From Candidatus Micrarchaeota archaeon (GTDB lineage: Archaea > Micrarchaeota > Micrarchaeia > Norongarragalinales > Norongarragalinaceae), in the NCBI GenBank assembly GCA_043799765.1, contig JAZDNL010000080.1, positions 1 to 51,578 on the forward strand: 51,578 nt of DNA, in the 5' to 3' direction. The stretch's first letter is position 1; each line of letters begins with the position of its first letter. The notes under the pieces were generated by a model. The model saw only the letters and a program-made list of their open reading frames with translations. It searched no databases and was not told where the DNA came from. The position numbers were made by a program, and so were the translations under genes. Below are positions 48,113 through 50,460 of the stretch, in pieces.

Positions 48113-48708
48113 TTGCGGAACACCCTCCTGCCTTCTATGCGAAGCCTGCCTTCCGCGAAAAGCTTGATCGCCTCGGGAAGCGCCTTGTGCTCCTGCTCGA
48201 GTATCCGTGCGGAAAGCGTCTCCTCGGTGTCGTCGTCCATCACTGGCACCGTCTTCTGCAGGATGATCGGGCCGTGGTCGCACTCCTCGTCCACGAAATG
48301 AACCGTGCAGCCCGAAACCTTCGCCCCCCATTCGAGCGCGTCGCGTTGCCCGTGCGTTCCAGGGAACGAGGGAAGCAGCGCGGGATGGATGTTTATGATT
48401 TTGTTGCGGAACGCTTCGACGAATACCGGCGAAACGAGGCGCATGTAGCCCGCGAGAACAACAAGCCCTACGCCGCGCTTGCGCATTTCTGCGACGAGCT
48501 TGGCGTCGTACTCCTCGCGTTTCATTCCCTTCGGGGAAATAAAGAGCGCCTCGGCGCCTGCCTTCTTCGCGCGCTGCAGCGCGAGCGCGCCTTCCTTGTC
48601 GCTTATCACGACGGCAACCTTTGCGGGAATCCTGCCCGCCCCGCACTCGTCCAGAATCGCCTGCAGGTTGCTGCCCCTTCCGGAAGCAAGCACACCCACC
48701 TTCAGCAT
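48109..48708 (-). CDS. purN: Phosphoribosylglycinamide formyltransferase
   Basis: VLASGRGSNLQAI, INIHPALLPSFPG and SGCTVHFVDEECDHGPII. Confidence 0.92.
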   Translation of the reverse strand: MLKVGVLASGRGSNLQAILDECGAGRIPAKVAVVISDKEGALALQRAKKAGAEALFISPKGMKREEYDAKLVAEMRKRGVGLVVLAGYMRLVSPVFVEAFRNKIINIHPALLPSFPGTHGQRDALEWGAKVSGCTVHFVDEECDHGPIILQKTVPVMDDDTEETLSARILEQEHKALPEAIKLFAEGRLRIEGRRVFRK

Positions 48709-49112
48709 GATATGATTTCCGCGACGCTCTTTTTAATCAGTTTGGCGCCGAGAGAACGGGCGGCTTTTGCCGCGGCGGCGTCCTCGCACTCGCCCGACCA
48801 AAAAGCCTTCTTTCCGCACCTTATTTTCTCGACGCAGAACGACGCGCTGCCTTTTGAAAAGACGAAACTGCGTTCCTTTTTAACGACGAATGCGGGATGG
48901 TCCGGAATGAATGCCGCGCCTTCCATAAGGACGCGCTTTCCCCTTCCGTCCGAATAAACCAGCTTCGCCTTGGCTCCGCACACCCTCACCCTCAATCGCG
49001 GCGACAAATAATAGTCGGTGAACGTGGTTCCCTTTGATTCGGAAAAACCCGCCTTCTCCGCCTTCCTTCTAAAAGTATCGAAGTCGCGCAGCAGGAAGCG
49101 CAGCTCGTTCAT
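48702..49112 (-). CDS. Hypothetical protein, possibly a degenerate CYTH-like (CyaB/ThTPase) fold
   Basis: The pattern ELRFLL...F.DYYL..RLRVR ... VKKERSFVF ... resembles the CYTH strand order, but the acidic catalytic motifs are not evident. Overlaps both neighbours. Confidence 0.35.
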   Translation of the reverse strand: MNELRFLLRDFDTFRRKAEKAGFSESKGTTFTDYYLSPRLRVRVCGAKAKLVYSDGRGKRVLMEGAAFIPDHPAFVVKKERSFVFSKGSASFCVEKIRCGKKAFWSGECEDAAAAKAARSLGAKLIKKSVAEIISC

Positions 49113-50386
49113 TCTTCCTTTAGCTCGCGTATCTGCGCCAGCCTGCCCTCGAGGTCCTCCTTCAGCTTGGGCGCGATGAAGTTCTTCGTGTAGAAGTCAG
49201 CCTTCGCGGCTATTGAAAGCGCTCCCGCAAGGGCGCGGGCGATTTTGCCGCGCTTCCCAAGGGGCGCCGTGTTTATCATCGGGTCCTGGAAAATGATTCC
49301 GTGCTTCGGCGTGGAAATGCGCTTGTTCTTCAGGTGCTTGAACAGCGCCTTCTCAGCGCCCATCACCTGCACAGTTGACGACGGAAGCCGCGCAAGCCTT
49401 TCCAGGCTGCCTGCAAGCGAAAGCAACCGCGAAGCGAGCATGGGCTCGATCAGGTAGCAAAGGTTCGGCATCTCCTTCAGCGCCTTTTCCTTCGCGTATT
49501 CCTCGAGAAGCGCGCGCGTTTCCGCAAGCGCGGCTATCTCGGACGCCAGCCTCCTTATCGCCGCGCGGTCCTTCTCGTCGAACGGCGCGCCGAAGCTCTT
49601 CGAGAGCAATGCCTTCGCCTTCTCCGCGCCGACGTACTTCGCCAGCTCCTCCTCGGGCATCTGGCGCCTGTCGCCGTATTTGGAATACAATTCGCAGACG
49701 GTTTCCTCGTTCTTCAGGTCGAGTTCGGGGAAATTCAGCTGCGCCCACTCGCTCAGGCGCTGGTACATCAGGCTCTTCACATTGTCCAAGTCGTCGATTG
49801 CGCGAACCGCCTGTATAAGCGACGACTCCGGACGCTTGTAAGCATCCTGCACGCCTTCCTTCGCGCGTTCGAGGAAAGAGCTCCTGCGTTCGGCGAATCC
49901 TCCTTCGCGCCTTTCGCCGCGGAACCCTCCTTCTCTCCTGTCCCCGCCGCGATATTCCTCGCGTCTGAAACCGCCCTCCCTGCGCGGTCCCCTGAAGCCG
50001 CCCTCTCTCGGCGGACCTCTGAATCCGCTACCCTCGCGCCTTTGGAATCCGCCCTCCCTGGCCGGGCCGCGGTCGAACCCGCCTTCCCTAGGCGGACTGC
50101 GAGTGAACCCGCCCTCTCTAGGTGGGCCTCTGAAACTTCCCTCGCGCCTTTCACCGGAACCGCCGCTCGGCCTGCTTCCGCCGTAGCTTCCAGTTTCGCG
50201 CCTTTCTCCGCCGCCTTGGTATCCTTCGCGCTTGAAGCCGCCCTCGCGCCTTTCACCAGAACCGCCGCTCGGCCTGTAGCTTCCGCCTTCGCGTCTCTCG
50301 CCTGAGCCTCCGCTTCTATGCGGCGCGCTTCCGCTCGGCTTTCCACCGCTATAACGGTTGCTCTTGAAGCTGCGTTTCTTAAACAT
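49109..50386 (-). CDS. nop5: Nop5 (Nop56/58) homolog: NOSIC plus Nop domains preceded by an about 175-aa Arg/Gly/Glu repeat region
   Basis: RLSEWAQLNFPEL (NOSIC) and LARLPSSTVQVMGAEKALFKHL...TPKHGIIFQ...KRGKIARALAGALSIAAKADFY (Nop). GGGGAG lies 8 nt upstream of ATG 50386. Confidence 0.85.
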   Translation of the reverse strand: MFKKRSFKSNRYSGGKPSGSAPHRSGGSGERREGGSYRPSGGSGERREGGFKREGYQGGGERRETGSYGGSRPSGGSGERREGSFRGPPREGGFTRSPPREGGFDRGPAREGGFQRREGSGFRGPPREGGFRGPRREGGFRREEYRGGDRREGGFRGERREGGFAERRSSFLERAKEGVQDAYKRPESSLIQAVRAIDDLDNVKSLMYQRLSEWAQLNFPELDLKNEETVCELYSKYGDRRQMPEEELAKYVGAEKAKALLSKSFGAPFDEKDRAAIRRLASEIAALAETRALLEEYAKEKALKEMPNLCYLIEPMLASRLLSLAGSLERLARLPSSTVQVMGAEKALFKHLKNKRISTPKHGIIFQDPMINTAPLGKRGKIARALAGALSIAAKADFYTKNFIAPKLKEDLEGRLAQIRELKEE

Positions 50387-50460
50387 TGAATATCTCCCCT
50401 CGGATAGCGCGTACCCGCGCTTCGAACAAGATATTTAATCCCCCGCCTATTAAATACCGT

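Follow-up and report, generated by a model that had tools for sequence, protein, structure and literature searches.

The single Nop5 gene found in this micrarchaeal genome encodes a protein that lacks the N-terminal fibrillarin-binding domain (NTD) of archaeal Nop5 and carries a disordered, repetitive tail in front of its folded part. Our reading, to which we give a probability of roughly three in four, is that this protein is the single Nop5 scaffold of a retained C/D sRNP, in which fibrillarin would be recruited independently of the NTD and the tail would be an accessory. The window, i.e. the whole stretch of DNA that was analysed, comprises 51,578 nt. The host assembly consists of 722 kb in 98 contigs and is 76% complete, and the closest named relative of the host is Ca. 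Norongarragalina meridionalis. The features discussed below are collected in Table 1.

Table 1. Features of the nop5 locus (window coordinates) and candidate C/D sRNAs (contigs of the host assembly, C numbers).
Feature	Position	Strand	Remarks
nop5 (aNOP56) orthologue	49109..50386	-	425 aa, stop codon included
Coiled-coil and Nop (L7Ae/K-turn-binding) domains, codons 171-425	49112..49876	-	Pfam, phmmer against the PDB, AF2, Foldseek
Disordered R/G/E/S/P/F repeat tail, codons 1-170	49877..50386	-	REGGF and GGSGERREG units, basic tip MFKKRSFK; composition, AF2, dN/dS
Two 44-nt direct repeat copies	50131-50174 and 50233-50276	.	91% identical; encode PSGGSGERREG units
Imperfect tandem arrays, periods 27 and 30 nt	49895..50122	.	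encode xxREGGFxx units
Purine-rich GAGGGGAG, possible Shine-Dalgarno element	50394..50401	-	7 nt 5' of the ATG
TATA-like ATTAAATA	50432..50439	-	about 46-53 nt 5' of the ATG; box and flanks conserved in G143; putative promoter element
C/D sRNA candidate sR2	C14:5040-5100	+	descriptor scan
C/D sRNA candidate	C58:3311-3369	-	descriptor scan
C/D sRNA candidate	C70:2944-3001	+	descriptor scan
C/D sRNA candidate	C78:5941-5998	+	descriptor scan
C/D sRNA candidate	C90:12030-12088	-	descriptor scan

Identity of the protein

The C-terminal part of the protein had been described in the first-pass annotation as a normal NOSIC plus Nop domain. Pfam assigns a single domain to the whole protein, Nop (PF01798, residues 197-417, E 9e-47); the region aligns well with archaeal Nop5 but gives no separate NOSIC match, and the description thus holds apart from the NOSIC label. 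In phmmer searches against the PDB, residues 172-421 align to positions 122-376 of S. solfataricus Nop5 and residues 179-421 to positions 130-377 of P. furiosus Nop5, with 186 bits for archaeal Nop5 as opposed to about 100-124 for Nop56/58 and about 40 for Prp31. The coiled-coil and Nop domains are 40-44% identical to those of the archaeal proteins of known structure (P. furiosus 2NNW and 3NMU, S. solfataricus 3ID5 and 3PLA).

An AF2 model built on 117 homologues is all-helical over residues 163-421 (pLDDT 85-98, above 90 in the Nop domain), and its long helices 163-218 and 271-305 make up a predicted coiled-coil dimerisation domain. The top Foldseek match was 3PLA_A, Nop5 within the active S. 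solfataricus C/D RNP, and the highest target coverage was obtained for 3NVI_A and 3ICX_A (TMt 0.89-0.90). The latter two are engineered, N-terminally truncated Nop5 constructs, 3NVI solved with L7Ae and RNA only and 3ICX alone. They are nearly co-extensive with the folded part found here, with the difference that the constructs were made in the laboratory, whereas the present protein represents the natural and only Nop5 of its phylum.

A search of the whole assembly returned one Nop-domain gene. A second, canonical nop5 would have made the present gene a Prp31-like paralogue, as the first-pass annotation pointed out; no such gene was found in the 76%-complete genome, nor does the protein contain Prp31_C or any other Pfam domain besides Nop. 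As a single Nop gene is present here and likewise in 150 of 151 Micrarchaeota genomes, and as the Nop5 bit score lies above those for Nop56/58 and Prp31, we identify the protein from its sequence as the sole Nop5 orthologue of the genome and not as a Prp31-like paralogue. Its likeness to archaeal Nop5 extends to the single copy, to the co-occurrence with fibrillarin, candidate C/D guides and (in relatives) L7Ae, and to the nop5-fib gene order kept in some relatives. It differs in having no NTD of about 120 aa, in carrying some 165 aa of disordered R/G/E tail, and in scoring below the cut-off of the NCBIfam equivalog for aNOP56 (NF011121; 256.7 bits against 452).

Absence of the N-terminal domain

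The claim of the first-pass annotation that the fibrillarin-binding domain is absent is supported by our searches. PF08156 (NOP5NT) has no match in this Nop5; since that profile remains below its cut-off even in archaeal control genomes it is unsuitable as a test for the NTD, and we used PF21572, a custom HMM, NCBIfam coverage and the AF2 model instead. PF21572 gave no match in the host genome at E <= 10. The custom HMM, built on 12 canonical NTDs, reached a best E of 0.49 against all six-frame ORFs of the host genome, and in NF011121 this Nop5 matched profile positions 128-379 of 417, leaving positions 1-127 unmatched. A cryptic NOP5NT fold, which would have spoken against the claim, was looked for in the AF2 model, and residues 1-160 were found to be disordered throughout (pLDDT 41-56, no secondary structure).

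The PF21572 and custom HMM searches also returned no stand-alone or split NTD elsewhere in the 76%-complete genome. Weak PF21572 matches (15-19 bits) in five other genomes were rejected as NTDs, as they belong to unrelated proteins, two of them small and Toprim-like, and no homologue of these proteins was found in the host genome.

The gene order 3' of nop5 is as previously described, with a CYTH-like ORF and then purN (AlphaFold model and Pfam agree), and without an adjoining fibrillarin gene; fibrillarin is unlinked and encoded on another contig (C72:2056-2673, about 216 aa). The downstream ORF of 136 aa is translationally coupled to nop5 and is a genus-restricted orphan with three homologues. 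In view of its genus restriction and the CYTH/TTM-like fold of its AlphaFold model we rejected it as a split NTD or an adaptor.

Distribution of the domain and of the tail in Micrarchaeota

It had been proposed that the tail replaced the NTD. This we do not uphold, as the NTD is missing throughout the phylum and the majority of relatives lack the tail as well. The single Nop genes of the phylum lie mostly in stop-to-stop frames of 256-350 aa, which leaves no room for an NTD in addition to the 255-aa core, and PF21572 exceeded its cut-off in none of the 151 genomes. We further surveyed the best 120 homologues from a database of 5.8 billion proteins. Bare proteins of about 257 aa, which open with MGRE or MKRE right where the first coiled-coil helix begins, account for 81 of these; an R/G-rich N-terminal tail is present in 11, a similar C-terminal tail in 14, and a fusion with fibrillarin in one. 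A canonical NTD was seen in 13 of the 120, the most distant ones, including one from Desulfurococcales.

Sequences from 32 loci were compared. Tails occur in these at either terminus and in many families, with similar composition and a similar basic-aromatic tip, which reads MFKKRSFK at the N-terminal end and ...FKKFNKNRR, ...KRFNKGRR or ...FFKKRRDE at the C-terminal end. From the single short Nop frames across the phylum, the bare majority and the presence of tails at both ends we infer that the loss of the NTD dates back to the phylum's ancestor and did not take place in this gene, and that the tail is a later, optional and lineage-variable appendage at either terminus.

The repeat tail

The tail has a length of about 165 aa and reaches to about residue 170. 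The composition count bears out the earlier description of about 175 N-terminal residues consisting almost only of R, G, E, S, P and F, with eight REGGF and three SGGSGERREG units (GGSGERREG in our count), to which one REGGS unit can be added. Residues 1-169 contain 47 G, 37 R, 21 E, 18 S, 12 F and 12 P, and carry a net charge of +19. The DNA repeat of 36 nt with one mismatch was found as reported, and forms the core of the longer repeat of 44 nt. The label "RGG/GAR-like" is appropriate for the composition, R and G together making up 50% of the tail, but not for the motif, since the recurring unit is REGG(F) and a true RGG triplet occurs once. It should be noted that a TRAM RNA-binding protein of the same genome (C45:5821-6171) also bears an RGG tail.

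The GAR/RGG region of eukaryotic fibrillarin and the KKE/D tails of Nop56 and Nop58 are likewise disordered appendages of C/D RNPs that are rich in Arg/Gly or in charge. The present tail differs from these in that it sits on Nop5, is an REGGF polyampholyte with 12% Glu and one RGG, and was acquired within one archaeal phylum. By analogy, it is plausible that the tail is functionally comparable to the GAR and KKE/D tails in RNA binding or condensation.

An alternative is that the tail is a functionless expansion, generated by slippage in a GC-rich gene and tolerated without being selected. The tandemly repetitive DNA would be in line with this, and so would the highly variable length and sequence among relatives, most of which have no tail. 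However, over 149 tail codons aligned with the orthologue of the sister genome the dN/dS is 0.215 at a dS of 1.25 (core dN/dS 0.093), and we therefore regard the tail as being under purifying selection. The recurrence of R/G/E/aromatic tails with similar tips at either terminus in many families, together with the RGG tail of the TRAM protein, also argues against a functionless expansion, which we consider unlikely.

Fibrillarin and L7Ae

The first-pass annotation had suggested that the genome be searched for fibrillarin, L7Ae and C/D sRNAs. Fibrillarin and five sRNA candidates were found in this way, and from the L7Ae family only L30e. Throughout the phylum fibrillarin is present in 149 of 151 genomes. 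Long open frames around it were examined as possible extra domains and rejected as non-coding read-through, the plain protein being about 216-225 aa long.

Six genomes from the order of the host (G056, G149, G146, G137, G077 and G046) have fib directly 3' of an NTD-less nop5, and in most of the phylum the two genes are unlinked. A metagenomic protein, P0026, is a fusion of Nop5, an RG linker and fibrillarin; it is a singleton on one contig, and a search for further Nop5-fibrillarin fusions returned none besides it. In the operon-bearing relatives the tail lies between Nop5 and fibrillarin, and in P0026 it forms the linker.

The L30e gene, which lies in an L30e-NusA-S12-S7 cluster, is the only match to the L7Ae family in the 76%-complete host genome. 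As 24 of the 25 genomes of the order contain a strong second match to this family, consistent with L7Ae, the L7Ae gene of the host is probably located in the unassembled quarter of its genome.

Candidate box C/D guide RNAs and their predicted targets

The host genome was scanned with a descriptor in the order box C, guide, D', loop, C', guide, box D. The scan gave 15 matches, against none in the reversed genome, and five C/D sRNA candidates with at most two box mismatches, against 0-1 in the reversed-genome null. At least four of the five are intergenic, and in each of them a short stem-loop separates D' from C'; Rfam contained no family matching these loci.

The clearest targets were obtained for sR2. 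Its D' guide can pair over 12 bp, one of them G-U and the other 11 Watson-Crick, with the pre-tRNA(CAU) encoded at C72:36-149, and its D guide over 10 bp, all Watson-Crick, with the pre-tRNA-Leu(CAA) encoded on C97; both precursors contain an intron. For both guides the N+5 nucleotide, i.e. the fifth from the D or D' box, is C34, and a score of at least 11 against the tRNA set is attained by only 0.15% of shuffled guides. In archaea, C/D targeting of position 34 is documented for tRNA-Met and tRNA-Leu(CAA) in PMC7994747 (section 6) and in PMC4033218, which cites sR-tMet. With the haloarchaeal sR-tMet and the Pyrococcus position-34 guides sR2 has in common both tRNA C34 targets, the N+5 rule and the intron-containing precursors. 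It differs from them in that a single dual guide serves both targets, in that the partner Nop5 has no NTD, and in a D'-C' stem-loop that would give a true K-turn and not a K-loop.

The tRNA(CAU) guide pattern was detected in 8 of 19 genomes of the order, where the backward control gave 0, and phylum-wide in 14 of 151 genomes as against 7 for the control. Full orthologous dual guides are present in G113, G146 and G137, and also in G051 and G093, the latter two having a bare Nop5 (frames of 272 and 270 aa). The first bases of the tRNA(CAU) intron vary between genomes and the 5' portion of the guide varies with them, the pairs being CGTG/GCAC here, CGC/GCG in G113, TGC/ACG in G146 and AG/TC in G020. 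These compensatory changes in guide and intron indicate selection on the pairing and on its register, in organisms with an NTD-less Nop5.

The host genome contains no 23S and only a fragment of 16S, and targets of the remaining four sRNAs were sought in the LSU rRNA of relatives, where the matches did not rise above the shuffled-guide null. A tentative 10-bp match was seen between the D guide of sR5 and the UGACUCUCUU stretch of the LSU rRNA of G086.

These guides also bear on a second alternative, in which Nop5 would be a Prp31-like organiser of K-turn RNPs that binds L7Ae-sRNA as a chaperone or assembly factor, with fibrillarin working alone or with some other partner. The architecture is that of the N-terminally truncated constructs and resembles that of the NTD-less Prp31 (PMC11213020). 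Prp31 of the U4 snRNP, too, consists of Nop and coiled coil with no NTD, and its partner on the K-turn is a protein of the L7Ae family; moreover, nop5 and fib are unlinked here as in most of the phylum. On the other hand, identity to Prp31 is 16-19%, the host has no spliceosome, and the protein scores far higher against Nop5 than against Prp31. The guides place N+5 precisely on C34 of both tRNAs and covary with these targets, and such a register matters only if the RNP positions a methyltransferase. The nop5-fib operons of six relatives with NTD-less Nop5, the fusion, and the retention of fibrillarin in nearly all of these reduced genomes point the same way, and we find it quite unlikely that Nop5 has taken on a Prp31-like role.

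Start site and assembly of the repeat region

A start codon after the repeats would remove the tail from the protein, and this possibility had been raised in the first-pass annotation. No usable internal start was found: ATG, GTG and TTG are all absent from the stretch that separates the repeats from the conserved helix SFLERAKEGV, and the next candidate, a GTG at V179, would cut off conserved sequence. In the sister genome (G143, from the sister genus, corresponding to Ca. Norongarragalina meridionalis, P0002), where the core is 89% identical to that of this Nop5, the orthologue has a colinear tail of 165 aa that begins with MFKKRTF at the same start position, with GTG as start codon. In view of the dN/dS value, the conserved MFKKR N-terminus, the shared start position and the promoter-like box upstream, we conclude on comparative grounds that the tail is translated.

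Exact matches in contigs from unrelated metagenomes cover positions 49775-49925, 50109-50259 and 50304-50450; these contigs are short and of low depth, and none spans the whole repeat region. Together with the repetitiveness of the region and its largely open other two frames (0 and 8 stops), this would leave some room for an artefact, i.e. for a start after the repeats or for collapse or chimerism of the repeat region during assembly, but the missing internal start, the colinear tail of the sister genome, the two exact matches at 50109-50259 and 50304-50450 from other samples and the promoter-like box in front of the annotated ATG make such an artefact highly improbable.

Discussion

To our knowledge, the NTD of Nop5, Nop56 and Nop58 is the fibrillarin handle in all structural and biochemical work on C/D RNPs, and it is considered indispensable in all archaea and eukaryotes studied. 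Our literature search, which included Micrarchaeota genomics papers, gave nothing linking Micrarchaeota or DPANN with Nop5 or fibrillarin, and a preprint on IS110 and Nop5 mentions NTD loss only for the eukaryotic Prp31. New observations are the retained nop5-fib operons, the fusion protein and the C/D sRNA candidates, among them a dual guide for tRNA C34 that covaries with its target.

As fibrillarin and guide RNAs persist although the NTD is absent, recruitment of fibrillarin must, on the genomic evidence, be independent of the NTD. Most likely, guided 2'-O-methylation continues. We thus picture a Nop5 that most likely still dimerises, binds L7Ae-sRNA and supports methylation catalysed by fibrillarin, with Cm34 of tRNA-Met and tRNA-Leu(CAA) as candidate products, and in which fibrillarin would be brought to the N+5 nucleotide through a contact other than the NTD. 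The first-pass annotation had spoken of a rewired C/D RNP. Rewiring is plausible, but an abandoned RNP is not what we see, as fibrillarin, N+5 guides and the nop5-fib operons of relatives persist; the operons, the fusion and the covarying dual guide shift the balance towards an RNP that is rewired and still active.

The tail cannot be the general solution for recruitment, as bare relatives keep the guide RNAs. An accessory role is favoured by the purifying selection, by the recurrence at both ends, by the position in operons and fusion, and by the tail of the TRAM protein, and we suggest that the tail is probably a non-specific RNA-binding or annealing arm, or a flexible tether of the RNP. Further, we speculate that this is a functional C/D methylation RNP without the Nop5 NTD, where fibrillarin would be recruited by the coiled coil, by a new factor or by the duplex of guide and substrate, and where in tail-bearing lineages the tail with its basic-aromatic tip may serve as a flexible leash or an RNA clamp; for this more specific version we see the chances as about even.

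A whole phylum that has no handle, yet has fibrillarin and N+5 guides, would mean that either a second mode of fibrillarin recruitment exists or the minimal requirements of a C/D RNP are looser than assumed. Being small, the system lends itself to a direct test with four recombinant components and one defined tRNA as target. The variable Arg/Gly/Glu tails, in turn, may be a prokaryotic counterpart of the GAR and KKE/D appendages seen on eukaryotic snoRNP proteins.

Candidate box C/D sRNAs and intron-containing tRNA genes

Five box C/D sRNA candidates were located in the genome of the organism itself. Where archaeal sRNAs typically have a short K-loop, these candidates carry a stem-loop between D' and C'; a stem of 3-5 bp was found in this interval in all five, often with a GNRA-like loop. 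The C14 candidate (sR2) is a predicted dual guide, with C34 as its target in both tRNA(CAU) and tRNA-Leu(CAA); each of these two tRNAs is encoded by an intron-containing gene. The tRNA(CAU) gene on C72 was wrongly called tRNA-Ala(cgc) by ARAGORN, and the end sequence common to C52 and C72 indicates an assembly overlap. In the relatives G056 (L042, 3687 nt) and G020 (L043/L044, three pieces across 6.7 kb), the 23S rRNA genes are expanded by large insertions, probably introns, when set against that of G086, which is 2925 nt long.

Coordinates of the features in the window and on other contigs (C) of the same assembly
Feature	Location	Strand	Remarks
136-aa ORF	window 48702-49112	-	overlaps nop5 stop codon (ATGA)
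small TRAM-domain protein	C45:5821-6171	-	Pfam E 1e-12
tRNA(CAU) gene	C72:36-149; second occurrence at end of C52		intron-containing
tRNA-Leu(CAA) gene	C97:49-169	-	intron-containing
box C/D sRNA candidate	C14:5040-5100	+	sR2
box C/D sRNA candidate	C58:3311-3369	-	
box C/D sRNA candidate	C70:2944-3001	+	
box C/D sRNA candidate	C78:5941-5998	+	
box C/D sRNA candidate	C90:12030-12088	-	

The ORF adjacent to nop5 and weak NTD matches

The 136-aa ORF gave no match in Pfam or NCBIfam, and it has only three close homologues, none with a named source outside the genus. In the AF2 model (pLDDT 87.5) the protein adopts a shortened fold of the CYTH/triphosphate-tunnel type.

The archaeal Nop5 NTD model gave weak, sub-threshold matches to two mutually homologous small Toprim-like proteins (L084 in G043 and L085 in G066; 128 and 141 aa). 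As no homologue of these is present in the organism's own genome, we judged them unrelated to the Nop5 NTD.

Fusions and RG-rich tails

In the search of 5.8 billion proteins we detected a single Nop5-fibrillarin fusion, P0026 (513 aa, JGI metagenome contig), in which an NTD-less Nop5 is naturally joined to a complete fibrillarin, with some 40 aa of RG-rich linker between the two. Further, the proteins P0124, P0128, P0136 and P0125-P0158 include metagenomic fibrillarins with an N- or C-terminal R/G/S/N-rich tail, along with a fibrillarin-NUDIX fusion family of about 330 aa.

The R/G-rich tails of the relatives' Nop5 genes (L016-L035) have a similar basic-aromatic motif at the distal tip, whichever protein end bears them (MFKKRSFK or MAYGRKPFRK at the N-end; FKKFNKNRR, KRFNKGRR or FFKKRRDE at the C-end), and this tip may be a short linear motif. 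The TRAM-domain protein bears a GGGDRGGDRGGDRGGYGGGF tail at its N-terminus, hence RG-rich tails in this genome are not confined to Nop5.
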